A DNA stretch of 64,000 bases, from assembly GCA_964016885.1 (NCBI GenBank), contig OZ024743.1, forward strand, positions 320,478,001 through 320,542,000, read 5' to 3'. The DNA is from Eledone cirrhosa (taxonomy: Eukaryota). The position numbers and the translations under genes are program-made. Under the pieces are notes generated by a model. That model was not told the origin of the DNA, ran no database searches, and saw only the letters and a program-made list of their open reading frames with translations. Numbering within the stretch: position 1 is the stretch's first letter; each line of letters starts with the position of its first letter. Shown piece after piece: positions 19,700 through 53,226 of the stretch.

Positions 19700-20823
19700 A
19701 TTTGACATTTACTTTATTTTGTCGCGTTTTATCCTTAATCATTCGTGTTACCACTTCTAGGACGAGTGTCAACCAAGACTTGAGGGGTCTTCCTCCCCTA
19801 GAGACACGGCTATTCCCCGCCGGTCGCCATCCCGGTATTTCTTGGTCACGGGGTTTTCTTTTTTGTTGTTTTTTAAATTGTTATTATCATGAGTGATCCT
19901 TAATGTGAGCATTGCGTGGCTTAAGAATGAAATTATTATTAATAATATAATATACTTTTTGCTGAAGTTGCCTGTTATTGTTGTTGGCTATGTCGGTGGT
20001 GGTGCTGGGGCTTTTTCTATTGTTGGTGGGCCAGCAATGCTATAGTCGTTGACGTTTGACCGAGTCACTAAATCAGTCTATTTATATCTTTTGCTAGCCT
20101 CTCCCTTGTCTAGTGATACCGCCACCTTCCCCTTTCTTAAGTTAACAGGATGTAGTGGGGGAATAGTGGTGGTAGCAATGAAGGAGTGGTGGCGGCGGTG
20201 ATGGGATAGTGGTAGCAATGATGGATGGCGTGGTGGCGGCGGTGACTATAGTGATGTCGTTACTGGGTTTTGTTGAATAGACTGTAGTAGTATGCGTTTG
20301 TTTGATCTGTGTATCTATGCGGTTTGTCGCGTATGTTTAATATATGTGTTGACATATTTTCTTAATATTTGAATTAAACATTTTGAGAAAACTTGAGATA
20401 CAATAATACTAATTATTATTATTATGCTGGGATTGGTGGTGGTGGTGGTGAAATTGCCGCTATCTGGCTATTGTATTTAGTGTACACAGAGGGGTGATGG
20501 GATAGGTGGTGTATCTAATTTGTGGTGTTGGTGAAATTGCTGTTATTTGGCTGTTCTATATAGTGTAGACGGGGGGGGGGGGGTTCTTCCATTTATAACC
20601 ATTTTCATTTTTCAATATCAAATTTATAATACAAAATTGAATATTTGAGCTATATAACAGGATATTATGGATCCGAATTTTTCTGAGAGCAGAGTCTGGT
20701 GCTTTATGTATCATTTGTACTAAGAATTGTTATATCACAATTGTTTTAAATATGTTAAAAATCAAAATCTTACGGGAGCGATTTCATACCATTCTATCTA
20801 CCACGTGCGCCTTCTTCCCTTAT
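19700..20823 (-). mobile_element. 5' UTR remnant of a diverged Dong/R4-like element
   Basis: 20150-20823 aligns by eye to 34370-35163 (5' UTR of the intact Dong copy), ending at the same CTTCTTCCCTTA junction with (TTA)n. Left boundary is uncertain. Confidence 0.65.
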
Positions 20824-20846
20824 ATCTTATTATTATTATTATTATT

Positions 20847-23800
20847 GGCGACCTACGTAGTAAATCGTATCATCGTGAGCTCCACAAAGGTTTGTTGTTT
20901 TCAGTTGTTTAAAATTGCCATTTATGGAAAATTTTTATTGTTAACTGTATATAAGTGCACATACATTGTTTTCTGAAAAGGACAATCAAAAAGATTGGGG
21001 CCTTGAGCCCAACATTTAAACTTTTATAATTATCGAAAAAAATAATTTTCTTGAAAAATCATGGCCGACTCACAGCTGAACCAAGTAGCTGAGAGCCTTC
21101 CTCACAAACTAACACCTCACACCGACACAACCATTGTAAATATTACTACGTTTGCCAACACTAAAAATATAAGCAGTAGCAATATTTTAAATTTGTCTCA
21201 GGCAGACATTCATTTCCGCCATTACCAATGACTGCAAGTGTTGAAGCCGCCACCCCCACCACCACCACAGCGACAACAGAAACAAAAGAAAAAAATAAAT
21301 TATCTCGTGATATCGAAATGAATTCACCCAGAATAAACTCTTCCACACCGAATACCACTGACGCCACCACAACCACAACTGAAACTAAAATTAACAATAA
21401 CAAAAATAACGATAACAACAACAACAATAATGAGAATAAGAAAACCCTGTCTTTTGCAAGAGTAGCAAAAAAGTGCGAAGCAATACAGGTAACTCAGGAG
21501 GAATTAGAAGAAGCCAAAAGAATGGTAAAGGAAGATGGGTACAGGGTCAGCCTCACCCCACCTAATAAAATGAAGCATCGGCGTCTATGCACCGTGTCTT
21601 ATCGGACGATTAACATAAAATCGCGCCGAGTGGACCTGGCATCCGAGTCCCAAATCCAAAAAGCTTTGGGACATGTGTGGGCAAAAAAAACTCACATCAG
21701 ACGTGGGCAGAAATATGGAACCGTGGACGTGTTCTTTGAAACACCACAGGAGACCAGAGAACACTCCATGGCCCCATTAAGAAGTGACGACTTCACAAGC
21801 TATTGTGGCCAGAGACTCGTGAAGATCAGGGTGACCCACGTTCCACCGACCATCGAAATTCCCTGGCACCAAAATAATCGAAATAGCGAAAGAAAAGCAG
21901 GAGAACTGGTCCGGATCTGGGATGGAGCTCCTGATCCAAGCAGACCAAAAAGAGGAGATACCAGAGGTAATAGACTTCACTGACGGCAGCCACCTAACCG
22001 TAATCGTCGAGGGCAGAAGGCCTAGGTGTGACGTTTATGGTGAAGGAACCCACCTAAGGGCTTTCTGCCCTCAGGCTAAAAGGTTGAGGCCACCTCTCTT
22101 ACCCACAACAGTGACTCAACCATCAACACCACCAGCAGCAGAAATGGCACTAACAAATGTAGTAGCAACAACAGAAGCAACTGTAACAGCAACAAACCCA
22201 GCAACACTAGCAAAACCAACACCACCACCACCAAAACGCGCCAGAACTAGCACCAGCGCCTACACCATCCACCACGCCACAACCAAAACCAACGCCCATG
22301 GAGGATTTTCCACTCCCCGACCTATCGCAACTGGAGATAGATTGTGACAAGAGGAGTGGGAAACGGTATCAGGAAAAAAGAAAACAAAGAAAAAGAAAGC
22401 AAAAATGAAAAAATCCTCTTCCTCCCCCCTCCAAAAACAAAATACAGAGGGAAACACATAAAATATCAAACAAAAAAGTTAGGACAGCTATGCCACCATC
22501 CACACCAGCATCACCAACCCCATCACCACAAACACCAACACCATCACCATCATTAACCCCAACACCACCATCACCAACAGCACAAAAGTCACCAAAAAGC
22601 GAAACAGAAACAAACCCACAACAAACGCAAACAAAACAAAACAACCAAAACGATACACACTACACAACATTAAATTTGAACAACAACCAATTACTACATT
22701 ACATCCAACACAACACCAGTATCACAGAAAAAGACTACACAACAACCCAAAAGTTCACACCACCACCACATATACAGATCACTCGCATCACACAGAAAAC
22801 GTACACGACACTAAAACAAAAATTCCCCAAAGACATCGAAGACTTCTGACAAGCACTCTCCAGGAGGATTTATAAGGACATCCTTCCGGAGGCGGCCAGA
22901 AGCGGTGAAAAGGATGGAAAAACCATCCTTCCCCTACGAGAAGTAAGGTAAGTGGTCTATCCCATCTTTTCCACTCCATTTCAACATGACATCACTCAGA
23001 ATAGGCAGCATAAATGCGCGTGGCTTGGGGTCATCATGGAAGCAGGACCACCTGCTCAACTACCTCAGGTCACTAAACATAGATGTAGTGGCCATCAGCG
23101 AGAGCAGTATCTCCGATGCACGGACCTTCGTACCGATCTTCGGCGGCTACGATGTGTACGCATCTCCCAGCCGTCCTGGATCGGAGGGAAGAGTTGCTGT
23201 GCTTTTTCAGAAAGGTTTAGATCTCGCCATACGGGCCATCTTCCTGGACCCAGAAGGTATGTTGGTGGTGCTGGACGTGACCAGCGGAGACGGGCAAGCT
23301 TTCAGGCTAGTGGCCGTCTATGCCCCGACAGGAGCAGGGCGGCCTGATTTCTTCCGGCGTCTGGAGACCTTTCTTGGAACGTCCCGCTCTTTAGTGTTAG
23401 TGGGCGACTGGAACGGGATCTTAGTTGCACGCTGGGACTGTGTGGGATTAGCGGATAAGGAAGGAGGGTGCAAGAGCCTCACCAACCTGCTCAGGCGTTT
23501 TCAACTGTCTGACAGGTACCGATTGGATTTCCCGAATGTGCCAATGTGGACTTGGACAAATCGCATAGGGTCATCCAGATCATATCTAGATAGAGTACTT
23601 TGTTGGGAAATAGATAGGTCTAGCATAGGCTGTCCACAATTCAAGATAGTCAGCTAGACGGACCACAAATTCGTGATCTGTGTGCTTGACATAGATAGGC
23701 TTCATAGACGTGGACCCGGCTACTGGAAGCTAAACGCCTCCTTACCAGCGCGCAAGGCCTACAGAGACCGGATTAGCGAACTAGTTAAGCGGGCGTTGAC

Positions 23801-26650
23801 GGGGCCATCGTCAACAACAAGTTTTTGGTGTGCTCTTAAAAGAGCGAGTAGAATAGAGTCCATTGGGTTTAGTAAGGCATTAGCAATGGAGAAAAATAGA
23901 GCAGAGGGAGAACTAGTTAGAAAATTACACGAGGCGCTTAGCAAAGGCATCGCGCCCGAGGTACTAGCGACGAGATTGGCCCTTGACCAATTCTTCAATG
24001 CAAAGCACGAAGGCTGCGTTGTCAGAGCTAAGGTGCGTGCTCTCAGATACGAGGGGACGAAAGCCGTTCAATGGGCCCGAGTGGCGGATGCGCATCGTGG
24101 CAACAAAGCCACGATCCGGTTTTTGGTGGACCACGACGGGCGCATGCTACTCGATCCCAGGCAAATGTGTGAAGCTTTTCAGCGAAATTTCGCACAGCTG
24201 TTCGTGGGCAGCGGCGGGCCGGAACGAGGGATGGACTTTAGTGTCTACCTCGACGGACTGCCGCGGCTCCCGGCCACTGAGGCGGAGCATTGCGAAAAGA
24301 CGATAACAGCCGCTGAAGTACGGGAGGCAATGACTGGCTGCACAAGCGGTAAATGCCTGGTTTGGATGGTCTGCCCTATGAACTTTACGTACAGATGCCA
24401 GACTTGTTCGGAGGCCTCTTGGCGGACGTCTACTGCAACTGGCAACAGAACGGGAGAATTCCCACCTCTGTGAGCCGAGGAGCTGTGGCGCTGCTGAGAA
24501 AGGATCCGAACAATGGGGATAACAGATAATTTCAGGCCCATAACTCTGCTAAACACAGAGTTCAAGAATTTGGCCAAAGTGCTAGCAAAGAAGTTAGCGC
24601 TTGTCGTTAGTGGTCTGGTTAGGAGAGGCACAGACATGCGCCATTCCCGACAGATCCACCCACGACAACCTCCACCTCATGCGATACATCGTAGAGAGGG
24701 TAGCTAGGGAACCTGGCACGGGTGGGTCCTTGATCAATTTAGATCAGTCGAAAGCTTTCGATAGGGTCGACCATCATTACCTAGCGGCAGTCCTGAGGGC
24801 GGCTGGCTTTGGGCCAGTCTTCAGAGGCTGGATCGCTGCCATGCACAGCGATATCTGCTCTGTGGTGAGAGTGAACGGTCACCTTTCGGAACCGTTCAAC
24901 ATCATGCGCTCGGTCCGCCAAGGATGTCCCCTCGCGTCCCTATTGTACGTATTGACTCTCGAGCCATTACTGCACAAACTGGAGATGTTGAGGGGGGTCC
25001 CGCGCGAACTAGGATGCGGAAGATCCGTGTCAGCATATGCCGACGATGTCACCGTAGTGGTGTCGAACGCCAAACACATCGAGGCGATCGGCACTACACT
25101 AAGAGAATACGAAGCGGTGACAGGAGCAATGATCAACCAGGAAAAGTCAGTGGGCCTGCAGCTCGGCACCTGGAGAGGCAGGTCCATGCCGTCCAACAGC
25201 GTCGTCGGGCGCTGGACGGACGGACCGGTTAAATTGCTAGGGATCTGGTTCGGTCCAGACCTCCAGACGGACAACAACTGGGACGAGGTGACGAGCAGGG
25301 TGGCTTCTCTCACCCAGAAATGGGCCGAGAGGAAGCTATCCCTGAAAGGTCGAACGGAGGTGGCTAGCGCGTACATCGCGTCCGTCATCTACTACCGCCT
25401 GACCGTCGTACCTTGTCCTAAGCCCCGCCTGACTGAGCTGGAGCGTTTGCTCTTTCGCTTCTTGTGGAAGGGACGCGCTCCGATGGTCAGGCGGTCCATC
25501 TGCTGTCAACACCCGCTACGTGGAGGGCTGGGCATGCCGTGGCTGATGATGCGCAGACACGCGCTCAGGCTACGACATCTCCACCTCTTCCTCGACGGTG
25601 ATCAGGTGTGGTCGCCGTTTGCTAGACAAGTTTTTTTCCCAGCTCGTCTCCTTGACGGTACTGCAGTCCTGGGTCAAGCGAAGACCGAGAGGGAGCGGTT
25701 GGACACTGGAATGTCTACAGCCGCTCACAGCCCTCGACCAATCGGGCAATGTGATCGGTGGAAACTCCACCTTGGCGTTCTATAGAGGATTAGTGGAGGG
25801 GAAGAGCGACGACGTACTTGGAGAAACTCTAGGCGTCGACGAAAATCAACTAGCCAATCTCTTCGGAAGGACTTTCGGGCCGGGGCCTATGGACAACTTC
25901 CAGAAATCCCTGGCCTGGCAGTGCTACCGGGGTGCTTTGCCAGTTCGGGATAAACTTTACAGGCATGGAGGTGCCGTCAGCCGGGCATGTCCGAGATGCG
26001 CACAGGGCGACGAAACCGTCCTGCACGCACTCGTCCAGTGTCCGAGCATTGCTGACTTGTGGGTTTATGTCGAACACCTGCTGTCACGTGTAGGACGGAT
26101 CCAGCTATCAGCTTAGTCCATCGTGAGGATTGCCCCGCCCTCTTCCTTTAGCTGGGAAGGGCAGGCAGTTTTTATCTGTCTGGTGGCCATGGCGAAAGAG
26201 ATAGTATGGTGGACACGTTTGAAAGGGCTGAAGACGAGCACTTACCTCTTCGGTGATGCCCTGATTAACTTTTTCAAATTTCATCTGAAAAGGAAAATCA
26301 GGGTAGAGAGGGAAGGGCTCTCTTCCCAGCATTTTGTTGAAAGGTGGGTGAGAGAAGCAAGTATGGCCCGAATGAATGGGCCTTCTCTGAGTATGTGTCT
26401 GTAAATTAAAGGTGGAAGACTGGGAGAGGGCACTTGCCCTGGTGGTCAGGGCCACTGTGGTCTTTTAATGGGCTTTCTCCACAAATGTCCCTCGGAAGTC
26501 TCCCCCCTATTGGGGAATTTTTCTTTGTTATTTTATTTCATCCACTGTTTTTTTTTACACGCAGAAATGACCATTTGTACCGTCCTGTATTGTCCTGTAC
26601 TGTCCTTAATGTCTACTTTATGTAAACCCTTGTGGTTAATAAAGAAAACA
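20847..26650 (+). mobile_element. Tx1-like LINE (copy C), full length but disrupted: ORF1 21228-22849, ORF2 22986-26404
   Basis: ORF1 knuckle-like VEGRRPRC..THLRAFC; APE (GSINARGL, LVGDWN, SYLDR); RT (LDQSKAFDRV, VRQGCPL, AYADDV); C-terminal CPRC..ETVLHALVQC. (TTA)n on both sides. Confidence 0.95.
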
Positions 26651-26679
26651 TTATTATTATTATTATTATTGTTGTTATT

Positions 26680-29600
26680 CCTTGAATCTCAGTCATTGAT
26701 GTTGGTTAACTGGAAAGTCCGTTGGATTGAATATCAAGCCACTACCTGCAGCCTCAGATATTCAGGACGTATCGGAGGGTTCTTGCTGTTCCAAGCAAGC
26801 ATGCTTTTTGAAGCGTTCCAAAAAGCGTGAAGGGGCCGATTTTCTTTAACCATCCCTGGAAACTTTTGGAGATAGTCCCCAGTGCGCCTATGACAATCGG
26901 GATCACTTTGACTTCATGGCAGTTCCAAATCCTTTTCACCTCCCACTTTAGGTCCTGGTATCGGTTAATTTTCTCCCTCTCCTTCTCTTGCACTCTCGTG
27001 TCGAACGGGCAGGCCACATCCACAATCAGGCACGATCTTTTTTCTTTGTCCACAACCACCAGGTCAGGTCTATTGTGTTCCATTTTTTGTCCGTCTGTAT
27101 CCTAAAATCCCACAGCACCTTCACCTGATTGTTCTCCATCACCGCCTCTGGCCTATGCTCATACCATTTCTCAGAATGTGGTAAATTGTTTACTTTGCAC
27201 AGGTGCCAGTGGATCACCCTGCCCAACACATCGTGTCTCCAGCCCTTATAGTGGGTCTGGGCTAGGTGTTTACACTCGGACACAATGTGAGCCACAGTCT
27301 CCTCTCTCTCTCCACAGATCCTGCACAGTGGGCTAGCCTCCTCCTTGTAGATATGGTGCTTCAAACACTTCGTTTTGAGGGCCAGCTCCTGCGCAGCCAT
27401 TAGCATTCCTTCTGTAGCCTTTTTGAGGTCTCCTCTTCTCAACCAGTTCCATGTCTGTGGATCTCTAAATTCAGTTTTCTCAAAGAAGGTACTATGAAGG
27501 GATTTTCCCTTAAGGCTGCACTTCCTCCTTGATGTTATTTCCTCCTTGGACATCCCCTGGCCTACTGTCCCCTCCTTCAGTACAGTTCTGAGCATTGGCT
27601 CCTTACTATAGGTCACGTATTTGTATAGGTTGTTTTTCTCCATCTGAACACAGTCCTCTATGCTGATAAGACCTCTTCCACCCTCAGATCTCCTTAGGTA
27701 GAGTCTATCGACATCACTCCTCTTGTGGAACATGTTGTAGATAGTCAATAGCTTCCTAGTCTTCCTATCCATTTCTTTTTGTTCAGCAACATTCCATCTC
27801 AGTATTCCCGCACTGTACCTAATAATAGACACAGCTCGGGAATTTACTGCGCTTATGGCATTTCTGCTGTTCAGATGTGACTTAAATACGCTCCTTACTC
27901 TCCGAATGTATTCAGTTCTTAACAATTCCTTCATTTTTTTGTTCTTTATGCCATCAGCCTCCAGAACGCCCAAATACTTGTATCCTTCCTCAGAGTCAAT
28001 TTCCTTTATCATCTCACCTGTTGGTATCTGGATCCCGTTACTTCTGCTCAACCTACCCCTCTTCATCACAATGACTCCACATTTACCAATACCAAACTGC
28101 ATACATATATCACTGCTGAAAATACGGACAGTGTCAACAAGCACATCCAACTCCTTCTCACTTTTCCCGAAGAGCTTAAGATCGTCCATGAAGAGGAGGT
28201 GATTGATGGTAAGCTCTCCCCTTCCCAACTTGTATCCTGCTCTCACTTTTCGCAGCATAATGGTCAAGGGCATCAGGGCAAGGACAAACAACAGAGGGGA
28301 CAGGCTATCTCCCTGGAAGATACCTCTCTTGATCTTCACGCTTCCCAAGGATACTCCAGTTGATGTCAACTCTGTCTCCCAGGACCCCATACTCCTGCCT
28401 AGCAACTGTCTGATGTTATCTGCCACCCTGAAGATCTCCAGGCTTTTGGTGATCCAGGAATGAGGCACCATGTCAAATGCCTTTCTGTAGTCTATCCATC
28501 CCATGGCAAGATCAGTGTGTCTCCTCCTGCAATTCCCCATTACCATCTTATCAATAAGTAACTGGTCCTTTGTATCACGTGACTTCTTTCGGCATCCTTT
28601 CTGTTCGTCCGGTAACAAGTTGTTTGTGTGGAGGTGATGGTAGATTTCCTCAGACACAATGCTCGTCAACAGTTTCCACATTACGGACAGACATGTGATA
28701 GGTCTATAGTTGGTAACATCATTACCCTTGATTCGGTCTTTCATTATCAGAACTGTGGTACCTTTTGTCAACCACTCTGGCACCTCACCCCACACCAAGC
28801 AGTCATTGAACATGGCCGTCAGCTTCGGGTGGAGGGATGTTAAATGTTTAATCCAATACCCCTGCACACCATCTGGGCCTGGTGATTTCCAGTTGGTTAG
28901 TTTTTTGGCCTGCCCCTTAAGAGTTTCAACTGTGATACTCAAATCAGTTTGTTGTTGTGCCTGCTCACCGATCTCCCTCTGTACTGTCTCAATCCACCCT
29001 GCCTGGGCATTGTGTCTAACATCCTGCTCCCATATTCCTCTCCAGAACGTTTTAGTTTGCTCCGCCCCAGGGATCAAGTCGTTGCCTCTTTCTTTCCCCT
29101 CAAGCTATCCAAACAGCATCTTCTGGTTGTTGTCGAACATGCGGTTCTGTTTATACTGACTGACTCTGTTCTCGTATCGCCTGATTTTTGCACTCTTTGC
29201 TACAATGCGTTGCTTCAGTTCCTCTATGATAATATTTAGCTTTTTCCTCCTAGTTTTGTATTTTATTTCCAGTCTATTTTTAGTGCCTATGTTTTTTAGT
29301 GTCCCATTCAGTAGTGACTCAAGCTTTCCTATGTCATTTCTCATTTCCCCGATTTGCCCACTCAGTCGCTTCTTCCACCACGGCTCTGCTCTTTCTTGTC
29401 TGTTGTTTCCTCTCGCTTTTATACCAAGTAGTTTCCTCACCGTATTTGCTGTTGCTTTGAGGATATTGTTGCACTGGTGAAGGCTCCTCGCCTCAAGGTA
29501 TGGGATGACTTTGTTTACCTTAGCTGTTGTTTCTTTTAACTTTTTCCTGTCTACAAATCTTAGGTTCATAGGTCTCCCACTATCATTGTTCAATTCATCT

Positions 29601-30260
29601 ACCACTAAATTTAGGATGTCAACCGAATCTTGTCCTAGCCCGTCAGCATTCATCTCCTCAGTGGCCGTATCTCTGTTCCAGGTATTATTTATCTCAGTAT
29701 TCAGATCATTGTCTGCTTCGGGTGGTTCCTCCGTTCTCAGGACCTCTTCACCTTCATTTCCCACTGGCTCGCTTGTCTGGCATACTACACCCGCCATCTC
29801 CAAGCCATTCTCTCTGCTCAGTTCCTCCAGTTCCAGCTCGCTTATCTATCCATTAGTTCTTATTACCCGAGCCTGCCCGGCCAATTTTTGTTCATCTAAT
29901 TTAAATAAACCAATCTCGTTCCAGATGTTATGCATCCGTCTCCTGTAGCCCCTCTCCTTGGGGTTACTTTTCAGGTAACATTGCATAACAGTTCTATTCA
30001 ATTCTTTCGTCCAGTTGGTTCTGGCCCCTTTCCTTCTTCTCCTTCCTCCAACATCAGCAGTATTTGGTTGACAGTCAGGTTCCTGCTGCTGAGCTAGGGG
30101 TCACCTGCTGGGTGAGAGTCTGTCACATGACGTTCTAGTCTCCATTTCACCGTTATTCGAACTGTTTATGTTCGATATTTAAACACTCTTATCAAGGATT
30201 GGCGAATGTATGGTTACATATCCATCTGTGGATCCGCCATTCCACTTGGCCCTTGTGTGG
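26680..30260 (-). mobile_element. Dong/R4-clade LINE copy 1, 5' UTR truncated, ORF broken by stops and frameshifts
   Basis: Near-identical to the intact ORF 30390-33782; split at ~27083, ~29105 and ~30095. Flanked by (TAA)n. Confidence 0.93.
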
Positions 30261-30261
30261 A

Positions 30262-30297
<36 letters not shown>

Positions 30298-30389
30298 TAT
30301 ATTGTTATTGTTATTCCTTGAATCTCAGTCATTGATGTTGGTTAACTGGAAAGTCCGTTGGATTGAATATCAAGCCACTACCTGCAGCC

Positions 30390-33782: not shown

Positions 33783-34351
33783 TTCACCGTTATTCGAACT
33801 GTTTATGTTCGATATTTAAACACTCTTATCGAGGATTGGCGAATGTATGTTTACATAGCCATCTGTGGATCCGCCATCCCACTTGGCCCTTGTGTGGCAT
33901 TATCACCACGCTGTATACGGACACACATAAACAAACAAACACACGGGCAGAAAGGGCCCCAAAAATGAATAAGCATAAGTTTCATTGTAATGTAGTATTC
34001 GAATGTCTGACTTAGTTTTTGTTTTTTAAGTTTTACTTTTTCCCCCCTCTTCTCTGTCCGTCCGCCTGCTTCTCTCTTCATTCTTATTTTCTTTACGTTT
34101 CTGGGGTTTCTTTTTTTGTTTTTGTTTTTCTCTGTTTTTCTCGTTTTTTACTGTTGTTGCTGTGCTGCTTTTGTTGTTTGTTTTTTCTTTTTTCTCTTGA
34201 GTCTATCTATATATTTTGATGCCTTCCTCTTTGTTAGTAGTAGGAATTCTATAATGTGGAAGTGGTAGCCAGCAGAGACTGGCGGCGTTGGCGATACTGA
34301 GACAGTGGTGGTGGTGATGTCGATACCGAGGCAGTGGTGGCGGTGATGCGA

Positions 34352-34997: not shown

Positions 34998-35162
34998 TTA
35001 TAACAATATATTTTGGGTCCGAATTTTTTTTGGGCTGAAGCCGGGTGCTTTACGTAGCATTTGTACTAAGAGTTGTTATTTCACAAATGATTTAAATATG
35101 TTAAAAATTCAAAACTTACGGGAGCGATTTCATGACCTCCGTCACCTCGTGCGTCTTCTTCC

Positions 35163-35163
35163 C

Positions 35164-35234
<71 letters not shown>

Positions 35235-38180: not shown

Positions 38181-38203
38181 ATTATTATTATTATTATTAT
38201 TAA

Positions 38204-38237
<34 letters not shown>

Positions 38238-38239
38238 GT

Positions 38240-40676: not shown

Positions 40677-40692
40677 TTATTATTATTATTAT

Positions 40693-43600
40693 GGCCGCAC
40701 ATGTGTGAAGACAGTACAAATCTGCGGGGGAAAAGGTTCGTAACTTTAGACTGTTTTAAAGTGTCATTTTTTTGTATTTTCTTGTCGTTAACGAAACTTA
40801 AGGTACACATCTTGATTTAAAGAGAAGGATACCTCTCAATATTCGGGCTTTAAGCCCGAATATTCAGATTTATTTTTAAAAACTTCGAAAAAAAATCACT
40901 TCCCCACCAAAAGAAAATTATGGAAATGTTCGACCTTGAAACGGTAAACAACGTTCAGGTCAAAAGTTTAACGGCAGCCACTGTAGATTTCACCACGACT
41001 ACGACGACTACAGTCATGCCTGTCATCCACTCTACTGAATGTGAAGGCAAAACTCAACCTTCTGTGATAGCAGCAGTATCATCTGAAAACGACATCACCA
41101 CCACCACCACCACCACCACCACCACCACAACAACAACAACAACAACAACTCAGAGCAATAATGACAATAACACCGACAGCTTCAATGTAAACAAGGATGG
41201 CGGTGGCAACACCAATAACAACAGCAAGAATGACAACAACAACAATAAGAGCATCAGAAACACCACATTTGCTGCAGCAGCAGCAAAAACAAAGCGCTTA
41301 TTGAATATTGATATTGATATTAGCGATAAAGACGAACAGTTGGCCAAAGCGTGGAGGTTAATTAAACGGGAGAAGTCCTGGGCAAACCTGACCATCCCGG
41401 ACGAGGCAATAGCGGCCATGCAAAGGAGGACGGTGTTCTTTCGATGTATTTCGGTGCAGACACGAAAAGTGGAACTTGCGAGCCAAGCAGAGGTAGAGGC
41501 TGCTTTGGAGTACATCGGAAGTAACATAGAGTACAAAGCAAGAGGCAAACAATTCGGTACCATCTCGGTACTGTTCAAAACCGAGGCCCTCGCTATTAAG
41601 CACTCGGTGAACCCCTGCAGAACGGAACGCATTATCATGCATCCGTCCTATATGGGTAAAAGGACAGTGAAGGTACGCATTCCCAGCATCCCACCAGGAA
41701 TGAACATATGGTGGCTGCTGGGATGCGTAATCGAGGAGGGGACAGACACTACCCTCCTGGACATCAAAAGGACAGAGAGAGAGGACTGGTCCGGAATGGA
41801 TTTGGAGATTCTTCTCCAAATGAAACCGGAGGATATGAATAACATCCCGGATTTTGCCCGCCTGCAGGACGGGCCAACAATCCAACTAATGATTGACGGA
41901 AGAAGGCAACGCTGCTTCGTCTGCGGGGAAGCAACGCATCTTCAAGCCTTCTGCCCTCAGCGCAAAAATGCAGGGGGTCGCAAACCTCCTTTGTTGCCAA
42001 CACCAGTGTCAGCACGGAAAGCTGCACCACCAGCACCACCAAAACCAACATCAACAAAAACACGGACACCAACATCAAAATCAGCCGGATCACCACCAAC
42101 ACCAAAACCAATCCAAGGAGAAAACGAGGAAAGCTCTCCCACTCCCCCCCCCCAATTATACACATAGACAAAACAATAAACGCACACACAGACACAGAGA
42201 CACTCACAGACACAGACCCTTTGTCTGCCAGCAGCGAAGATGAAGGAAAACCCAAAAGTGCAAAAAAACAGCACTAACGCAAACACTTCCCCAATAACAT
42301 AATCACCAACAGCAACATCGAGACCACCTCCACAATCCCCGAAACGCAAACAACCTAAACAAACACAAGTACAAACATAGACATACCCGAAACAACACCA
42401 CCAAAACCATCGCCACCACCTTCACCAAAACGAAAACAAATAAAACTACACCAACAAAATGTTAAAAACTTCGTGCTTGTCAGAAGGGCCAACGATAAAC
42501 TGATGGCCCTCTTAGCGCGAAGCGAGGACATTCAAACAGAGGGGGAGATTTTTGACATGAGCACATTTTGCGTGCCAGAAGATTTGCTTCTGGTCCGAAT
42601 GTCACTCAATTCCTTCAAAGAAATTCGAGAGAGCTTTTCTCAAGACGTGGGAACCCCGAATGTGAAACCCACATCAAGACTTTTAAAGGGGTTCCCAAAA
42701 GAAATCCCACCAACCATGGAGGTCGAACTACCCGACCTTCACAAGACCCGGGAGGTAAGTAAACCTTCCCTCTCTCTCTCTTAGCTTACCAATATGGCCA
42801 TATTAAGAGTAGGAAGTTTAAATGTTCGCGGCCTGGGGTCACCCTGGAAGCAGGGTCGCCTGCTCAACGACCTCCGGTCGCTGGAAATGGATGTGATTGC
42901 CGTAAGCGAGACCAGAATTTCCTACACGCGCGCACTAGCCCCCATTTTCGACGACTATCAGATCTTCACATCGGTTAGCAGGCCGAGAATGGGGGATGGG
43001 GTGGCAGTGTTGTTAGGGAAAGGACTGGATCTCGAGGTAAGGTCGATCTTCCGGGACGCGGACGGTAAGTTGGTGGTCTTGGATGTGAGCAGTAGCGAAG
43101 GTGGTGCCTTTAGACTGCTGGCCGTCTACGCCCCTACAGGGGCCAGACGACCTGACTTCTTTAGGCGCCTGGATACCTTTCTGGGTACGTCTCGCCCTTT
43201 ACTGTTAGAAGGGGGACTGGAATGGCATCTTAGACGCACGCTGGGATTGTGTGGGAGTAGCCGATAGGAGCAGGGGGTGCAAAAGCCTCAAGCACCTACT
43301 CAGCCAGTTCCAAATGTCTGACAGGTATAGACTAGATTTCCCCAATGTGCCAGTATGGACATGGACCAACCGAATGGGGTCATCTAGATCGTATATAGAC
43401 AGGATCTTCATTAGGAAAATAGATAGAAATAGTGTGGGCTGTCCACTTTTTAAAACGGTCGCCTATTCAGATCACAAATGTTTGATCTGTACGGTCGACC
43501 TAAATAAAACGCGTAGGTTAGGACCGGGTTACTGGAAGCTGAACATGTCATTTCCGGCACGTAAGGCTTACAGGGACCGAGTCAACAATTTAGTTAAGCA

Positions 43601-46441
43601 AAAGTTGACAGGGGGGATCATCAACAACAGATGGTGGGAGGCTCTCAAAAGAGAGATTAGAGTAACTTCGATAGAGTTCAGCAAAGAACTAGCGTTAGAG
43701 AAAAATAGAAAGGTGGGGAGCTGGTAGATAAGTTAGACGAGCCTATTTGGCGTGCTAACGGCGAGAATGGCATTAGACCATTTCTTCAATGCCAGACACA
43801 AAGGTTGCATTTTCAGAGCTAAGGCGCGTGCGCTGAGAAACGAGGGAACTAAACCTGTTCGATGGGCCCGCGTGGCGGAGGCGCAGCGTGGTAATAAAAC
43901 CACAATTCGGTCTAGGCGGACCGAGACGGACACGAGATAAACGATTCCAAGCGGATGTGTGAGGCCTTTCGCCAGCACTTTGCTCGGTTGTTCAGGGAGA
44001 GTGGCGAGTCAGAGAGAGTAGCGGATTTCAGTCCCTACCTTGACGGCTTGCCGCGCATCTCGATGGTCGACGCTGAGCGCTGCGAAAGGCCGATTACTTC
44101 AGCCGAAATTCAGGACGCCCTTGTCGGCTGCATGAGGCGCAAGTCACCCGGTTTGGATGGCCTGCCCTACGAGCTTTACGTAAATATGCCAGACTTGTTC
44201 TCCGAACTCCTCAAAGCACTCTACTGCAACTGGCAGCAGAATGGGAGTATTCCCAGTTCTGTCAGCAGGGGAGTGGTGACGCTGATAAGGAAAGACGAGA
44301 ACAAGAGGGATACATTAGACAACTACTTCAGGCCCATAACTCTGCTCAACACAAAGTTTAAGATGTTGGTCAAGGAGATTGGCGCTTGTCGTGGAGGATT
44401 TGGTTGGGGAGGCGCAAACTTGCGCCATCCCAGCCAGGTCCATACACGACAATCTCCACCTCATGCGATACATCATAGAGAGGGTAGGGTGTAAACCTGG
44501 CTCCGGTGAGGCACTGATCAATTTAGATCAATCGAAAGCATTCGATAGGGTCGACCATCGATATCTGGAGTTTGTCCTCAAAGCAGCTGGCTTCGGCCCC
44601 GTCTTCAGAAGCTGGATCGTTGCAATGCACAGCGGCACCTGCTCGATGGTCAAAATGTATGGCCACTTCTCGGAACCGATTCAGGGCTCCCGATCGGTCC
44701 GTCAAGGGTGCCCTCTCTCTTCCCTTCTGTACGTATTGACTCTCGAGCCTTTACTGTGGAAGCTGGAGCTGTGGCAGGGCATCCCACTCGAACCGGGACG
44801 TGGAAAGGCGGTGTCGGCTTATGCGGACGACATCACCGTGATGGTGTCGAACACCTCAGAAATCGAGGTGGTCGGCACCTTATTGAAGGAATATGAAAGG
44901 TTGGCAGGAGCCAAACTTAACCCGGAAAAATCGGTGGGCTTGCAGCTCGGTACCTGGAGAGGCAAGCCCATGCCGTCCAACAGCGTCGTGGGGCGCTGGA
45001 CGGACGGACCGGTAAAGTTGCTCGGGGTTTGGTTCGGACCAGTCCTCCAGGTGGAAAAGAATTGGGACGAGGTAACGAGTAGAGTAGCCAGTCTCACCCA
45101 AAAATGGGCTGGGAGGAAGCTATCACTGAAAGGTCGCGCGGAGGTGGCGAATGCGTACATCGCGTCCGTCATCTACTACAGCCTAACCGTCGTGCCTTGC
45201 CCCCGTCCGCGCCTCGTCAAGTTGGAACGGCTCCTCTTCAAATTCTTGTGGAGGGAACAAGTTCCGTTGGTGAGGTGGTCCATCTGCTGCCAGCACCCTC
45301 TACGCGGAGGGCTGGGCATGCCGTGGCTAATGATGCGCAGACATGCGTTGAGGCTTCGACATCTCCAGATATTCTGCCTCAATGGTGAACAGGTGTGGTC
45401 GCCGTTTATCAGACGGGCCTTTCCGCAGCTCATTTCTTTGACTGAGCTGCAGTCCTGGGTCAAGAAGAGACCGAGACTGGGTGACTGGCACCTGGAATGT
45501 TGCCAGGCACTCACTGCTCTCTACCAAGCGGGCAATGCGATCAGTGGAACTTCCACTCTCGAGTTCTATAGAGGATTAGTGGTGTGCAAGTGCGATGACG
45601 CACTCGGAGAAGCTTTGGGCCTCGACGAAGTCGAACTGACCAGTCTGTACCGGAGGACTTTTGAGCCGAGGACGATGGATAATTTCCAGAAATCCCTCGC
45701 TTGGCAGTGCTACCGGGGGGCACTGCCGGTTCGGGATAAATTCTACAGGCACGGAAGTGCTGTCAGACGGACCTGCCCAAGATGCGCACGGAACGACGAA
45801 ACCGTTCTGCACGCACTTGTCCAATGTCCGTGCATTACTGACTTGTGGAGTTATGTCGAACAGCTACTGTCGCGTGTGGAACGAATCCGGCTATCGGCCG
45901 AGTCCATAGTGAAGATCGAGCCGCCACCTTCCTAAGGTCAGGAAGAGCAGGAAATTTTCCTCTGTCTGGTGGCAGTTGCGAAAGAGATTATATGATGGAC
46001 CAGGTTGAAAGGACTAAAGACAGACACTTTTCTCTTCGGCCAATTCCTCATCAACTTATTCAAGTTTCACCTGGAAAGGAGGGTGAGGGTGGAGAGAGAA
46101 GTGCTGCCCCCCAGTACATTTGCTAAAAGGTGGGTGAATGTGGCGAGAATGGCTCGTGTGAATGGGCCTACTCTGAGGAGAGGGGTGCTCTCCCTGGGTG
46201 CCCTAGAAGCGCAGGGTGGTTCAGGTTTGGTGGGGTACCCGAATCACCCCAGGGTCGTCCAACCCCTATCGGGGAATTTATTTTGTTATATTTATGCATA
46301 GTTCATTTTATATTTTTATATTTTCATTGTTAAATTAGTCTTGCCATTGTGCACTTTTACTCGACCTTATTGTAAACCCCCACTGTCCCTGTCTTTGTAT
46401 TGTCCCTTACATGTCGGCCCTTGTGGCTAATAAATGAAATC
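40693..46441 (+). mobile_element. Tx1-like LINE (copy D, distinct subfamily): ORF1 40920-42784, ORF2 42794-~46180, disrupted
   Basis: ORF1 CFVCGEATHLQAFC; APE GSLNVRGL; 518-aa RT segment 44379-45935; AATAAA followed by a (TTA) tail. Confidence 0.95.
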
Positions 46442-46450
46442 ATTATTATT

Positions 46451-47158
46451 GCCAGTTCGGGATAAACTCTACAGGCATGGAGGTGCCGTCAGCCGGGCAT
46501 GTCCGAGATGCGCGCAGGGCGACGAAACCGTCCTGCACGCACTCGTCCAGTGTCCGAGCATTGCTGACTTGTGGGTTTATGTCGAACACCTGCTGTCACG
46601 TGTAGGACGGATCCAGCTATCAGCTGAGTCCATCGTGAGGATTGCCCCACCCCCTTCCTTTAGCCTGGAAGGGCAGGCAGTTTTTATCTGTCTGGTGGCC
46701 ATGGCGAAAGAGATAGTATGGTGGACACGTTTGAAAGGGCTGAAGACGAGCACTTACCTCTTCGGTGATGCCCTGATTAACTTTTTCAAATTTCATTTGA
46801 AAAGGAAAATCAGGGTAGAGAGGGAAGTGCTCTCTTCCCAGCATTTTGTTGAAAGATGGGTGAGAGAAGCAAGTATGGCCCGAATGAATGGGCCTTCTCT
46901 GAGTATGTGTCTGTAAATTAAAGGTGGAAAACTGGGAGAGGGCACTTGCCCTGGTGGTCAGGGCCACTGTGGTCTTTTAATGGGCTTTCTCCACAAATGT
47001 CCCTTGGAAGTCTCCCCCCTATTGGGGAATTTTTCTTTGTTATTTTATTTCAACCTCTGTTTTTTTACACGCAGAAATGCCCATTTGTACCGTCCTGTAT
47101 TGTCCTGTACTGTCCTTAATGTCTACTTTATGTGAACCCTTGTGGTTAATAAAGAAAA

Positions 47159-47160
<2 letters not shown>
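46451..47160 (+). mobile_element. 5'-truncated Tx1 3' fragment (C/E subfamily) in the tail of copy D
   Basis: Nearly identical to 25939-26650; begins directly after ATTATTATT and ends in (TTA)n. Confidence 0.93.
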
Positions 47161-47210
<50 letters not shown>

Positions 47211-50200
47211 GAATGCCATAGTTGACGGAGGCTCGGTTCTGTAAGGTATAGTAATTTTTAACCGCTATAACAATTGTAAATTGTTTAAAACTTGAACCAA
47301 ATTGTAGATAAAAACACCCTCCTCTTCGTGAGAGGGGTCTTTCTGCTCGTTATTTGGCCCTTCGGGGTTAAATAACCGCTTATTGGGGTTTTGTACCCAA
47401 TATTCATTTTAAACCGTAAAAAAAAACATGGCTGCAAAAAAGAATTTTCACAAGTCACTCCGACACTTTCCGTCTTCTTCTTCCTCAATCGTCATTGCAT
47501 CAGAGAGAAGATTGTCTCTCTCCCTCACTTCTCTAAATGTGGTGTCGCCTCTTTCGCCAGCGATGCCATTAAAGAAAAGTATAGTTTCTGGAAGCTTTCA
47601 CCAAGAGAACGGGCATACCATGGAACATTTCTCCACGACGACGACGACGAAAAATGTGTGCGGTAAATACGGAAAGCCATTTCATTCGTCTGACGTCATG
47701 AAGAATAGCAGCAGCAACAGTGACAAGGAAAACACTAGTAGCAGCCGCAACAACATCAGCAGTAGCATAAACAACAACAGCAGCAGCAGCAACAGCAACT
47801 ACAACAGCAACAGCAGCACCAACAACAACCACAGCAACAGCGGCGGCGACGGTCGTAGTACCTGCAGCAACAACAAAAGTAACAGCAGCTCTGACGACGA
47901 CAACAACAACAACAAGAAAGAAAAACCAATCTCGTTTGCAGGTATCGCAAAGAACCTGGAAACCATCCTTATAACAACTGAGAAATTACAGGAAGCAAAG
48001 AAGATGGTGATGAAAACCGGACACCGAGCAATCTGCAAGGCAGCCGAAAAACTTTTCGAAACCCAACAGCACTATACGGTCACGTACCGTACAGTAAACA
48101 CAAAATCACGTAGGGTTGAAAGAGCCACAGACGCTCAAATACAAAAAGCCTTAGGGTCTGTGTGGCAGCGGAAAACGTATATCACCCGAGGCAAGAAATA
48201 TGGCACCGTGGACGTACTTTTTGCCACAGCCCAGGAGGCAAAGGCTCAATCCCTAGTGACCCTAAGGAGCGAGGAAATGGTGTTGGTGCCCTCCTACTGC
48301 GGGCAAAAATTGCGAGGGTCAAACTGACCCCCCCCCCCGGATGGCCCCTTCTTCGCTGGCCGCATCTGTCCTCGTCGGAATCGAGGACAAAACAACTGTA
48401 CTGCAAGTACAGAAAAAAGTACGAGAAGATTGGGTCGGCACCTCCATTGACATGTTAATTCAAACCAGCCATCGAAGCTATCCCGGATGTGATAGACTTC
48501 GATAACGGCACTCAACTTCCCATAAGTGTTGAGGGCAAACGCCCGAAATGTTTTCGCTGTGGGTCGAAGACTCACCTCAGGGCCTTCTGCAATGAGAAGA
48601 CCCTCGAGAAAGGAGAAAACCCCCTCCTTCCGAAACCGGCTCCACTGCTACCAGCAACAGGACATGCGGCATGCAGGAAGGATAGGTCCGTGGTACCCAT
48701 ACCCACGCCACGGAAATCAAGAACAGCAGCAGTAGTGGAAGTATTAACAACAACAACAGTAATAGCAACTGCAGCTGGCAACAGAGACTCCACTGCAATC
48801 ATCACCAACAAGAACAAGTGAAAGAGTGGAGCTGGTACCCCTCCCCGACCTCACAGAATCGGACATAGAGTGTAAGGTGGGAGAGGGATGGCAAAAGGTC
48901 GCAAGAAGGCACAAACGCAGAGGCAGCGCATCGTCGCCTTCGAAAAGGGAGTGAAGAAATAAAAAAAGGGTAAAGGCTACTGCAAAGAGACTTACAGCAG
49001 CGACACCACCAGCACCATCACCACCCACACTAGCACCACCATCACCACCCACACTAGCACCACCATCACCACCGGCGGCAACCCCACCACCAACAATAAC
49101 AACAACACCTTCAACACCACCACCACAAGCACAAACATCGCAAACACAACAATAAAACACACACACCCAGTAACAACGACAAGAAAATAGCAGAATCACA
49201 CCCCACCCCCAGAAAAAGAAATGCACAGCAATAAATACACACAACAAGAAACTAATGACTTACATAATTGAACACACAGACATTTCACAGCACGACTACA
49301 TAATACCAGCACCAATCAAAACACCAACGAACATAAGACTGGTAAGAATATCACAGAAACAATCCACAAACATTAAAATAAGGAGGCACACTCAACCGGA
49401 GAGTATATTCGGATATACTCACAGAAGAGCCGACGACCAGCCGAAGGGACGATTCAACGGTGCCTTCACCAGACGATCAAGTGAAAAGGGATGGAGAAAC
49501 CATCCTTCCTCTACGAGAAGTAAGGTAAGTGGTCTATCCCATCTTTTCCACTCCATTTCAACATGACCTCACTCAGAATAGGCAGCATAAATGCGCGTGG
49601 CTTGGGGTCGTCATGGAAGCAGGGCCACCTGCTCAACGACCTCAGGTCACTAAACATAGATGTAGTGGCCATCAGCGAAACCAGAACCTCCGAAGCACGG
49701 GCCTCCGCACCGATCTGCGGCGGCTAAGATGTGTACGCATCTCCCAGCCATCCTAGATCGGGGGGTGGAGCTACTGTGCTTTTTCGGAGAGGTTGGATCT
49801 CGCCATACGGGCCATCTTCCTGGACCCAGAAGGTAGTATGTTGGTGGTGCTGGACGTGACCAGTGCAGAAGAGCAAGCTTTCAGCCTAGTGGCCGTCAAT
49901 GCCCCGACAGAAGCAGGACGGCCTGTTTTCTTCCGGCATCTGGAGACATTTCTAACTATTTGGAGTTAGTGGGCGACTGGAACAGGATCTTAGATGCACG
50001 CTGGCAGTGTGTGGGATTAGCGGATAGGGGAGGAGGGTGCAAGAGCCTCATCAAGCTGCTCAGGCGTTTTGAATTGTTTGACAGGTACCGATTGGATTTC
50101 CCGAATATGCCAATGTGGACTTGGACAAACCGTATCGAGTAATCCAGATCATATATAGATAGAGTATTTTGTAGGGAAATAGATAGGTCTAGCATAGGCG

Positions 50201-53200
50201 GTCCACAATTCAAGATAGTCAGCTACACGGACGACAAATTCGTAATCTGTGTGCTTGACTTAGATAGGCTTCATAGACGAGGACCCGGCTACTGGAAGCT
50301 AAACGCCTCCTTACCAGCGCGCAAGGCCTACAGAGACCGGATTAGCGAACTAGTTAAGCGGGCGTTGACGGGGCCATCGCCAACAAAAAGTGGTGGTTTG
50401 CTCTTAAAAGAGCGAGTAGAATAGAGTCCATTGGGTTTAGTAAGGCATTAGCAATGGAGAAAAATAGAGCAGAGGGAGAACTAGTTAGAAAATTAGACGA
50501 GGCGCTTAGCAAAGGCATCTCGCCCGAGGTACTAGCGACGAAATTGGCCTTTGACATATTCTTCAATGCAAAGCACGAAGGCTGCGTTGTCAGAGCTAAG
50601 GTGCGTGCTCTCAGACACGAGGGGACAAAAGCCGTTCAATGGGCCCGAGTGTTGGATGCGCATCGTGGCAACAAAGCCACGATCCGGTCTTTGGTGGACC
50701 ATGACGGGCGCATGCTACTCGATCCCAGGCAAATGTGCGAAGCTTTTCAGCGATATTTCGCACAGCTGTTCGGGGGCAGCGGCGGGCCGGAACGAGGGAT
50801 GGACTTTAGTGTCTACCTCGACGGACTGCCGCGGCTCTCGGCCACTGAGGCAGAGCGTTGCGAAAAGCCGATAACAGCCGCTGAAGTACGGGAGGCAATG
50901 ACTGGCTGCACAAGCGGTAAATGCCTGATTTGGATGGTCTGCCCTATGAACTTTACGTACAGATGCCAGACTTGTTCGGAGGCCTCTTGGCGGACGTCTA
51001 CTGCAACTGGCAACAGAACGGGAGAATTCCCACCTCTGTGAGCCGAGGAGCTGTGGCGCTGCTGAGGAAGGATCCGAACAACGGGGATAACAGATAATTT
51101 CAGGCCCATAACTCTGCTAAACACAGAGTTCAAGATTTTGGCCAAAGTGCTAGCAAAGAGGTTGGCGCTTGTCGTTGGTGGTCTGGTGGGAGAGGCACAG
51201 ACATGCGCCATTCCCGACAGATCCATCCACGACAACCTCCACCTCATGCGATACATCGTAGAGAGGGTAGCTAGGGAACCTGGCACGGGTGGGTCCTTGA
51301 TCAATTTAGATCAGTCGAAAGCTTTCGATAGTGTCGACCATCGTTACCTAGCGGCAGTCCTGAGGGCGGCTGGCTTTCGGCCCGTCTTCAGAGGCTGGAT
51401 CGCTGCCATGCACAGCGATATCTGCTCTGTGGTGAGAGTGAACGGTCACCTTTCGGAACCGTTCAACTACATGCGCTCGGTCCGCCAACGATGTCCCCTC
51501 TCGTCCCTATTGTACGTATTGACTCTCGAGCCATTACTGCACAAACTGGAGATGTTGAGGGGGTCCCGCGCGAACTAGGATGCGGAAGATCCGTGTCAGC
51601 ATATGCCGACGATGTCACCGTAGTGGTGTCGAACGCCAAACACATCGAGGCGATCGGCACTACACTAAGAGAATACGAAGCGGTGACAGGAGCAATGATC
51701 AACCAGGAAAAGTCAGTGGGCCTGCAGCTCGGCACATGGAGAGGCAGGTCCATGCCGTCCAACAGCGTGGTCGGGCGCTGGACGGACGGACCGGTTAAAT
51801 TGCTAGGGATCTGGTTCGGTCCAGACATCCAGACGGACAAAAGCTGGGACGAGGTGTGGCAGGGTGGCTTCTGTCACCCAGAAATGGGCCGAGAGGAAGC
51901 TATCTCTGAAAAGTCGAGCTGAGGTGGCTAACGCATACATCGCGTCCGTCATCTACTACCGCCTGACCGTCGTACCTTGTCCTAAGCCCCGCCTGACTGC
52001 GCTGGAGCGTTTGCTCTTTCGCTTCTTGTGGAAGGGACGCGCTCCGATGGTCAGGCGGTCCATCTGCTGTCAACACCCGCTACGTGGAGGGCTGGGCATG
52101 CCGTGGCTATTGATGCGCAGACACGCGCTCAGGCTACGACATCTCCACCTCTTCCTCGACGGTGATCAGGTGTGGTCGCCGTTTGCTAGACGCGTCTTTC
52201 CCCAGCTCGTCTCCTTGACGGAGCTGCAGTCCTGGGTCAAGCGAAGACCAAGAGGGATCGCTTGGAGATTGGAATGTCTTCAGGCGCTCACATCCCTCGA
52301 CCAATCGGGCAATGTGATCGGTGGAAACTCCACCTCGGCGTTCTATATAGGATTAGTGGAGGGGAAGAGCGACGACGTACTTGGGGAAACTCTAGTCTTC
52401 GACGAAAATTAACTAGCTAATCTCTTCGGAAGAACTTTCGGGCCGGGGCCTATGGACAACTTCCAGAAATCCCTGGCTTGGCAGTGCTACCGAGGAGCTT
52501 TTCCATTTCGGGATAAACGCTACAGATGTGGAGGTGCCGTCAGCCGGGCATGTCCGAGATGCGCGCAGGGCTACTAAACCGTCCTGCATACACTCGTCCA
52601 GTGTCCGAGCATTGCTGACTCGTGGGTTTATGTCGAACACCTGCTGTCGCGTGTAGGGCGGATCCGGCTATCAGCTGAGTCCATCAGGAGGATTGCCCCG
52701 CCCTCCTCCTTTAGCCGGGAAGGGCAGGCAGTTTTTATCTGTCTGGTGGCCATGGCGAAAGAGATAGTATGGTGGACACGTTTGAAAGGGCTGAATACGA
52801 GCACTTACCTCTTCGGTGATGCCCTGATTAACTTTTTCAAATTTCATTTGAAAAGTATAATCAGGGTAGAGAGGGAAGTGCTTTCTTCCCAGCACTTTGT
52901 TGAAAGATGGGTTGAGAGAAGCAAGAATGGCCCGAGTGAATGGGCCTACTCTGAGTATGTGTCTGTAAATTAAAGGTGGAAAACTGGGAGAGGGCACTTG
53001 CCCTGGTGGTCAGGGTCACTGTGGCCTTTTAATGGGCTTTCTCCACAAATGTCCCTTGGAAGACTCCCCCCTATTGGGGAATTTTTAATTGTTTTTTTTC
53101 TGTTACATCCTCTGTTTTTTTTTTTACACGCAGACATGCCCATTTGTACCGTCCTGTCTTGTCCTGTACTGTCCTTAATGTCTACTTTATGTAAACCCTT

Positions 53201-53220
53201 GTGGTTAATAAAGAAAGCAT
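47211..53220 (+). mobile_element. Tx1-like LINE (copy E): ORF1 47428-~49530, ORF2 49563-52969, disrupted
   Basis: ORF1 CFRCGSKTHLRAFC. ORF2 and 3' UTR are highly similar to copy C; (TTA)n on both sides. Confidence 0.95.
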
Positions 53221-53226
53221 TATTAT

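Follow-up and report, generated by a model that had tools for sequence, protein, structure and literature searches.

A 64-kb stretch of the Eledone cirrhosa genome (contig OZ024743.1; hereafter the window) contains an array of two lineages of long interspersed nuclear elements (LINEs) set in TTA repeats. The array spans 20819-53227 and consists of a Dong-like 5' untranslated region (UTR) remnant, four Dong-like copies with a restriction-like endonuclease (RLE) on the minus strand and four L1-group copies with an apurinic/apyrimidinic-type endonuclease (APE), called Tx here, on the plus strand. Self-BLAST, tblastn and junction print-outs agree on this content, and the array is real. It is likely that it grew by repeated, separate target-primed reverse transcription (TPRT) of two lineages that favour AAT/ATT repeats, each insertion seeding the next. 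The pieces and their junction tracts are listed below from left to right (RT, reverse transcriptase; ORF, open reading frame; aa, amino acids; nt, nucleotides).

20055..20819, minus: Dong0, what remains of an older Dong-like copy, 5' UTR only; its left edge is uncertain and could extend to ~19830
20820..20846, plus: J1, TTATATC + (TTA)6TT; head-to-head, Dong0 5' end / T1 5' end
20847..26649, plus: T1, full-length Tx1-like LINE with 214-nt 5' UTR, ORF1, APE-RT-zinc knuckle ORF2, AATAAA and tail; ORF2 broken
26650..26670, plus: J2, (ATT)7; tail-to-tail, T1 / D1
26671..30261, minus: D1, 5'-truncated Dong-like copy; 98.2% to D2; 3 stops, 1 frameshift
30262..30297, plus: J3, (ATT)12, D1 / D2
30298..35163, minus: D2, full-length Dong-like copy; uninterrupted 1141-codon frame at 30390-33815 (RT, CCHC, PD..D..K nuclease)
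35164..35232, plus: J4, (TTA)23, D2 / D3
35233..38178, minus: D3, Dong-like copy, internally deleted (~0.9 kb) and 5'-truncated; 94-95% to D1/D2; 2 stops, 3 frameshifts
38179..38236, plus: J5, (TTA)8 A (TAT)11, D3 / D4
38237..40675, minus: D4, 5'-truncated, most decayed Dong-like copy; 89-92% to the others; 4 stops, 5 frameshifts
40676..40692, plus: J6, (ATT)5AT; head-to-head, D4 5' end / T2 5' end
40693..46441, plus: T2, full-length copy from a second Tx1-like LINE family; its 415-aa ORF1 carries a CCHC knuckle; ORF2 broken
46442..46450, plus: J7, (ATT)3, T2 / Tf; final TT common to Tf
46449..47159, plus: Tf, 0.7-kb 5'-truncated copy of T1 type; 97.8% to T1
47160..47210, plus: J8, (ATT)10 AG (TAT)6, Tf / T3
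47211..53218, plus: T3, full-length chimera with its own 5' UTR and ORF1; ORF2 and 3' UTR 94.6% to T1 from 49481
53219..53227, plus: J9, (ATT)3, after T3; right end of the array

The order was thus Dong0, T1, D1 to D4, T2, Tf and T3, with five pieces on the minus strand and four on the plus strand. All nine junctions carried a plus-strand TTA-phase tract of 3-23 units, and the two junctions between Tx copies, J7 and J8, were tail-to-head. A census of plus-strand TTA-phase and TAA-phase runs of at least 9 nt found 14 TTA-phase tracts in the 64 kb, 11 of which fell in 20827-53227, every one at a junction. None of the four TAA-phase tracts in the window lay inside the array, and the census found no tract of either phase within any element body of 20827-53227. 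An earlier, sequence-only reading had claimed this order and these strands, a TTA repeat at every junction and no interrupted body, all of which the alignments and the census bear out; the repeat is, however, only three units long at two of the junctions, 46442-46450 and 53219-53227. Its plus-strand Tx copies with TTA tails were likewise recovered, but they fall into three families.

Copies of the two lineages

The D2 frame matched RVT_1 in Pfam (E 1e-22). Its best PDB matches were R2 proteins (E 2e-31), followed by L1 ORF2p (E 7e-14). A C-terminal CCHC motif is followed by PD..D..K, which we take to be the restriction-like nuclease; C952, C955, H964, C969, R981, H982, P1038, D1039, D1054 and K1070 were invariant in all 14 aligned sequences. 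R2 and NeSL possess an N-terminal zinc finger that is not known from Dong/R4. The sole CxxC of the D2 protein is at 952, so an N-terminal zinc finger is absent here. All four Dong copies are flanked on both sides by (TAA)n in element sense, as is Dong0 on its 5' side. The minus-strand copies fit Dong of the R4 clade, a placement made by domains and TAA flanks rather than by a labelled reference, as none of the 120 listed homologues carries a clade label.

The 1.35-kb 5' UTR of D2 contains a ~330-bp tandem duplication (34352-34688 / 34680-35004; 95%), and Dong0 is 76-77% identical to this UTR at the nt level. Dong0 is split by (ATT)4 at 20412-20423 plus ~170 unrelated bases; its body is absent, and tblastn found no Dong ORF to its left. 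D3 retains ~110 nt of UTR, and this piece (38067-38178) showed 83% identity over 42 nt to 20055-20096 of Dong0, above expectation, which ties the remnant to an older UTR type. A 5' ribozyme of the hepatitis delta virus (HDV) type gave no Rfam match at gathering score in the whole window and nothing relevant at E up to 5 in 33800-35300. A ribozyme descriptor, run with no positive control, found no match in D2 or Dong0.

D1 and D2 differ by 65 substitutions (47 transitions, 18 transversions) and two indels. The ratio of nonsynonymous to synonymous rates (dN/dS) was 0.28-0.33 in all six Dong pairs, and the synonymous count between D1 and D2 had P 0.003-0.008 under neutral simulation. Each copy has its own 5' truncation with no copied flank; the truncation point of D1 shares a 5-nt ATAAT microhomology with the tract. 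Because the copies differ mainly by substitutions at dN/dS ~0.3, they are separate insertions rather than an artefact, the separate retrotransposition products of diverging active lineages as judged from these alignments. Disruptions per kb were 0 in D2, 1.2 in D1, 1.8 in D3 and 3.8 in D4. This order of decay (D4>D3>D1>D2) hints at growth near J2; it comprises only four points and is not strictly monotonic.

Tx ORF2 matched Exo_endo_phos (6e-11), RVT_1 and zf-RVT in Pfam, and its endonuclease (EN) matched L1 EN structures. P0241, 78% identical to T2, matched L1 ORF2p at E 3e-50 versus R2 at 4e-24. The plus-strand copies are L1-group LINEs by these matches and probably belong to the Tx1 clade, with no labelled Tx1 reference (Tx1L, Keno, Kibi, Koshi) among the 240 listed matches. 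The closest named relative among the matches listed was a protein of the octopod Argonauta hians (65% aa). In a quick tree of 42 rows, which left out TA and Tf (no RT region) and most homologues, P0241 and the Argonauta protein joined the copies of the window in one group (Shimodaira-Hasegawa-like approximate likelihood ratio test, SH-aLRT, 100). A further sequence, P0245, is named as a bacterial protein and is 68% identical to T2.

T1 and T2 are 73.5% identical in ORF2 at the nt level, and Tx ORF1 proteins are 30-51% identical; by these measures the Tx copies of the array are three families. The T2 ORF1 knuckle is CX2CX4HX4C. This ORF1 had no Pfam match at 1e-3, hence no Transposase_22, and its Atlas neighbours were of zf-CCHC / RRM / ZCCHC3 type at 0.90-0.93, which is a lead only. 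An RRM-like plus CCHC type I ORF1 is associated with Tx1 (PMC5203782); a literature search found no paper on ZCCHC3 together with Tx1. Because the ATG lies 215-228 nt past the tract in T1, T2 and T3 (+215 for T1 ORF1), these copies have true 5' ends. Tx tails start 5-7 nt after AATAAA without poly(A). Tx decay was 1.8, 2.2 and 3.0 per kb. T1 ORF2 has one stop and four frameshifts against P0241, and a further stop at 23657 ends its EN frame. Tf had no disruption in 155 codons and a dN/dS of 0.19 against T1 on 154 codons, and its 5' end shares a 2-nt microhomology with the tract.

A strong hairpin lies 130-180 nt into the 5' UTR of T2 (40831-40870; 0/40 shuffles as stable) and T3 (47341-47380; 1/40). 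The same position holds one in TA, a Tx copy outside the array (1/40), and a weak one in T1 (10/40), with no sequence common to the copies. Of six 5' ends, only that of TA folded better than shuffles over its first 100 nt (z -1.85), and the ribozyme descriptor gave one weak match, in T3, across seven regions, against 0-1 of 30 matching shuffles per region.

T1 and T3 have two RT frameshifts in common (24355 and ~24524 in T1; 50923 and ~51092 in T3), and a stop lies between the two. Their 5' halves are unrelated at the nt level; at 22905/49481, ~80 nt upstream of the ORF2 start, they change abruptly to a patchy identity (91-97%). Across EN and the first half of RT their dN/dS was 0.9-1.0, against 0.4-0.5 beyond. 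In sequence terms the pattern is a swap of the ORF1 module with a dead ORF2. Either T1 and T3 belong to a chimeric subfamily that has a dead RT and was mobilised in trans, or DNA-level exchange has partly homogenised them in place.

Probable repeat targeting and proposed array growth

All four Tx 5' ends in the array adjoin a TTA tract, and one of the two Tx 5' ends outside it, that of TA, adjoins a (CTAT)n tract. Positions within 10 bp of a TTA tract make up 90 of the 31,598 outside the array (0.28%). The nominal chance of four in four is p 7e-11, a figure that makes the evidence look too strong, because the window was selected for the feature, the array tracts were left out of the background and T1 and T3 are kin. 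The tracts at J1 and J6 lie between head-to-head 5' ends and are the tail of neither neighbour, so they are targets and not tails. The 5'-truncated D1, D4 and Tf also adjoin tracts. Barring a chaining by template jumping, any order of events requires T2, Tf and T3 to have inserted into a tract that was already there. None of five Tx 5' ends (T1, T2, T3, Tf, TA) lay at any of the many (TA)n tracts. For Dong, 14 loci with relatives outside the window held TAA tracts in 12 sense versus one antisense orientation, and at locus L004 Dong pieces stand head-to-tail, joined by (AAT)n. Loci L001-L014 are filed as bacterial contigs but hold eukaryotic LINEs and microsatellites, and they look like host contamination; L009, L010 and L014 carry same-strand runs of decayed Dong-like copies without tracts. 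For the Tx families, an alignment-based scan of the genome contigs produced 84 pattern matches, none of which was confirmed as a relative.

Outside the array, the left end of the window holds a tandem of sister Tx copies joined by a different repeat.

1..1834, minus: TA, 5' part (UTR, ORF1, EN piece) of another sister Tx copy; continues past the window edge
1835..1927, minus: (CTAT)23 tract between the two copies; forms the tail of TB and abuts the 5' end of TA
1928..5790, minus: TB, 5'-truncated sister Tx copy with (CTAT)n tail; 68-70% nt to T1-T3

This CTAT array is unique in the window and repeats the tail-to-5'-end pattern of the TTA array. The 3' terminus of TB, AATAAA included, is the same as that of the array Tx copies; only the repeat unit differs. 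The EN hairpin loop reads WTNR[IM]GSSRSY in the ATT copies versus WTNRSGTSRSY in the CTAT copies, of equal length with about two differences. In the quick tree TB fell beside T2, nested among the ATT copies, with weak support (SH-aLRT 89). A ~48-bp direct repeat (5791-5838 / 6375-6423) lies at the truncated 5' end of TB and beside a (TA)21 tract.

In the growth mechanism that we propose, the Dong-like RLE would nick the (TTA)n strand under the TPRT model and land reading (TAA)n. For the Tx1-like APE elements priming would start on the (AAT)n strand, so that their inserted copies read (ATT)n. The opposite polarity would then be no separate surprise, because each lineage nicks its own strand, and the bodies would be spared because they hold no such tract. 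Each insertion would split a tract and leave repeat on both sides, adding one target per event. Growth would be geometric rather than Poisson, and a nine-piece stack would need no special locus. As an illustration, at assumed rates of 0.1-1 per tract the Yule tail for eight further insertions is 2,500- to 30,000-fold higher than the Poisson tail.

What sets the Tx strand and repeat is, slightly more probably than not, endonuclease recognition. Published work assigns target choice mainly to the endonuclease and its beta-hairpin, with RNA-target pairing aiding the start of reverse transcription (PMC1919474, PMC7265360). Here a change of one or two residues could also switch specificity. A loose TpA nick combined with short pairing of an (AUU)n RNA tail is a less probable but live alternative, because the ATT and CTAT loops are near-identical, TB falls beside T2 and the tails begin close to AATAAA without poly(A). 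A fuller form of it, which we hold with more doubt, is that the landing repeat of the Tx1-like lineage is mainly RNA-set, through a weakly specific, TpA-nicking APE and pairing of a short read-through 3' repeat tail. A copy landing in a new repeat would then inherit that repeat as its tail, changing target without any change in enzyme, and the lineage would have drifted onto the repeat of Dong and co-built mixed arrays genome-wide. If true, such RNA-set targeting would explain near-identical loops in the ATT and CTAT families, the nesting of a CTAT copy among ATT copies, AATAAA 5-7 nt before tails that are not poly(A), and the presence of RT-dead T1 and T3 in TTA tracts.

Several results weigh against two repeat-targeting lineages. 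The truncated 5' end of TB has no tract, and TB is one of only two Tx copies outside the array. Eight of the 14 outside Dong loci lack a sense TAA tract; at L004 only 2-3 of seven pieces have a 5' tract and four of seven a 3' tract, and one piece directly follows another copy. A distant Tx relative at L008 (42% aa; a chance encounter) has the same 3' UTR motifs and no microsatellite tail. A 98-bp direct repeat (91%) on the right flank begins its first copy (53227-53322) exactly at the array boundary, and its second copy (53548-53645) has no TTA upstream; this is compatible with a repeat that starts at the boundary, and equally with a founder that went into a tract-free site. With their shared frameshifts and near-neutral dN/dS, T1 and T3 are not independent active copies, and the Tx decay levels are too similar to prove different ages. 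The evidence comes from one selected locus, and target-site duplications are unreadable inside a pure repeat.

Part of this would suit a history in which only Dong targets the repeat: Tx tails would arise by slippage, one or two template-jumping events would chain the Tx copies, and their tails would later be filled by Dong. The tail-to-head junctions J7, J8 and TB/TA, the bare 5' end of TB, the tailless L008 relative, the similar Tx decay and the right-flank paralogue without TTA all agree with it. Such chaining would need a single event to copy four RNAs, drawn from three families, into ~18 kb of cDNA, however, and Tf is undisrupted over 155 codons while 97.8% identical to T1. At J1, moreover, the 5' end of T1 meets a tract although no Tx precedes it, a point that would fall if a preceding Tx was lost together with the Dong0 body. 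We judge this history to be quite unlikely. A mainly DNA-level origin, by tandem duplication, unequal crossing-over or gene conversion, would account for the common frameshifts, neutral divergence over half of ORF2, patchy identity and sharp start at 22905/49481 in T1 and T3, and for the adjacency of D1 and D2 at 98% likeness. It is at odds with purifying selection on Dong (dN/dS ~0.3) and its separate 5' truncations without copied flank, with the 73% identity of T2 to T1/T3 and with the unrelated 5' halves of T1 and T3. For the array as a whole it appears very unlikely, and pure tandem duplication is ruled out by the substitution pattern and dN/dS; for the T1/T3 ORF2 match alone, DNA-level exchange is a reasonable possibility, though less likely than not.

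A special sink locus, either heterochromatin or a selected Piwi-interacting RNA cluster in which opposite polarity yields antisense RNA, would go beyond self-seeding. Beyond the array the window likewise consists of transposon debris (three Penelope-like elements, hairpin elements, microsatellites), and no host gene was found among the ORFs scanned. Self-seeding alone can nevertheless reach such sizes at plausible, assumed rates, D2 is intact, and a sink would be an addition to targeting rather than a substitute; we think it improbable. Mis-joining of similar repeats through TTA tracts during assembly could also be imagined, since every join lies in one low-complexity repeat, of a kind at which short-read assembly can go wrong. 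The window contains no N and no identical copies (best 98.2%), the differences are transition-rich substitutions with codon bias rather than homopolymer indels, and several tracts are 9-21 nt, spannable by any read. We give an assembly artefact, which the sequence-only reading had named as one possible refutation, a very low probability and reject it on the codon-biased substitutions and dN/dS ~0.3.

Repeated insertion by two lineages is thus retained as the likely account. The earlier suggestion that both enter pre-existing TTA/TAA tracts and seed the next insertion gains from the head-to-head tracts and from truncated D1, D4 and Tf, and holds in that form. Of its proposal that an APE enzyme converged on the same repeat as the RLE, insertion into tracts stands; that the EN itself reads (AAT)n is less secure, as the CTAT sister has a near-identical loop and RNA-tail pairing is an alternative. 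A single founder tract may lie behind the array, although the left flank is gone together with the Dong0 body and the right-flank paralogue lacks TTA.

Elsewhere in the window, Penelope-like elements (RT + GIY-YIG) were seen at 55160-58077 (plus), ~7611-9878 (minus) and 63431-64000 (minus). The one at 55160-58077 contains a frame of 784 codons and lies between direct repeats of ~590-700 bp (53832-54420 / 58666-59372), in which there is a 122-124 bp minisatellite, and that at ~7611-9878 has ~950-bp repeats (6779-7726 / 11040-11997). Three long palindromes of 270-325 bp, resembling miniature inverted-repeat transposable elements or foldback elements, lie beside (TA)n at 17296-17619, 18067-18341 and 60868-61135.

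Comparison with known systems

Dong, of the R4 clade, is known from Bombyx, Anopheles and Biomphalaria with a (TAA)n target (PMC3812793), and the single ORF with RT, CCHC and PD..D..K found here is as in Dong. The same review places Dong among APE-type elements, whereas the copy here has an RLE-type C-terminus. Dong of B. mori self-cleaves its 5' end through an HDV-like ribozyme (PMC3774820), for which no match was found here. Among APE LINEs, Kibi, Koshi and crocodilian Tx1 prefer microsatellites, and relatives differ in their unit (TC, TTC, TTCC, TTTC); target preference was taken there as more than 20% of flanks sharing a sequence type (PMC4494074). Those units are pyrimidine-only and the elements vertebrate, in contrast to ATT and CTAT in an octopod-related lineage. 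The background of the sequence-only reading, TAA-targeting Dong and microsatellite-specific Tx1, is thus in print (PMC3812793, PMC4494074).

A literature search found no ATT-targeting Tx1 and no mixed Dong/Tx1 array in the parts of the papers available, and a prior record may exist in Repbase, the PMC4494074 supplement or Kojima and Fujiwara 2004. With this window, the Tx1-like LINEs that target microsatellites would gain a probable (ATT)n target, along with a (CTAT)n sister. How the repeat is picked, by endonuclease or RNA tail, was not well understood according to a 2013 review (PMC3812793), and the ATT and CTAT families, being near-identical, offer a natural comparison on that point. D2, with its uninterrupted ORF, is suited to the biochemistry of a TAA-specific RLE. 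In Octopus vulgaris, Dong-R4 and L1-Tx1 are among the recently active elements (PMC13282606). Self-seeding predicts geometric array sizes and could explain some cephalopod transposon hotspots without a special locus.

Opposite-strand use of one repeat and the convergence of APE and RLE elements on one target are both precedented (PMC7265360, PMC4640811). TRAS1 and SART1 in the (TTAGG)n of Bombyx mori are likewise two LINE families inserted opposite to each other in one simple repeat, forming arrays (PMC7265360, PMC10088271). Both are APE elements of the R1 clade in a telomeric repeat, and SART1 ends in poly(A). Here the partners are RLE and APE, the TTA repeat is interstitial and poly(A) is lacking; no telomeric-type array occurs in the 64-kb window. 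Keno (APE, Tx1 clade) and Utopia (RLE) arrived in parallel at the same target in U2 small nuclear RNA genes, and Utopia is sometimes tandem (PMC4640811). The site that they use lies in a gene, with identical 3' flanks, and is not a repeat regenerated by insertion, whereas the lineages described here use opposite strands in one array. What seems new is the ATT target, the CTAT sister and the use of one interstitial repeat by APE and RLE lineages together. The array works like TRAS/SART and Keno/Utopia and is a member of neither.

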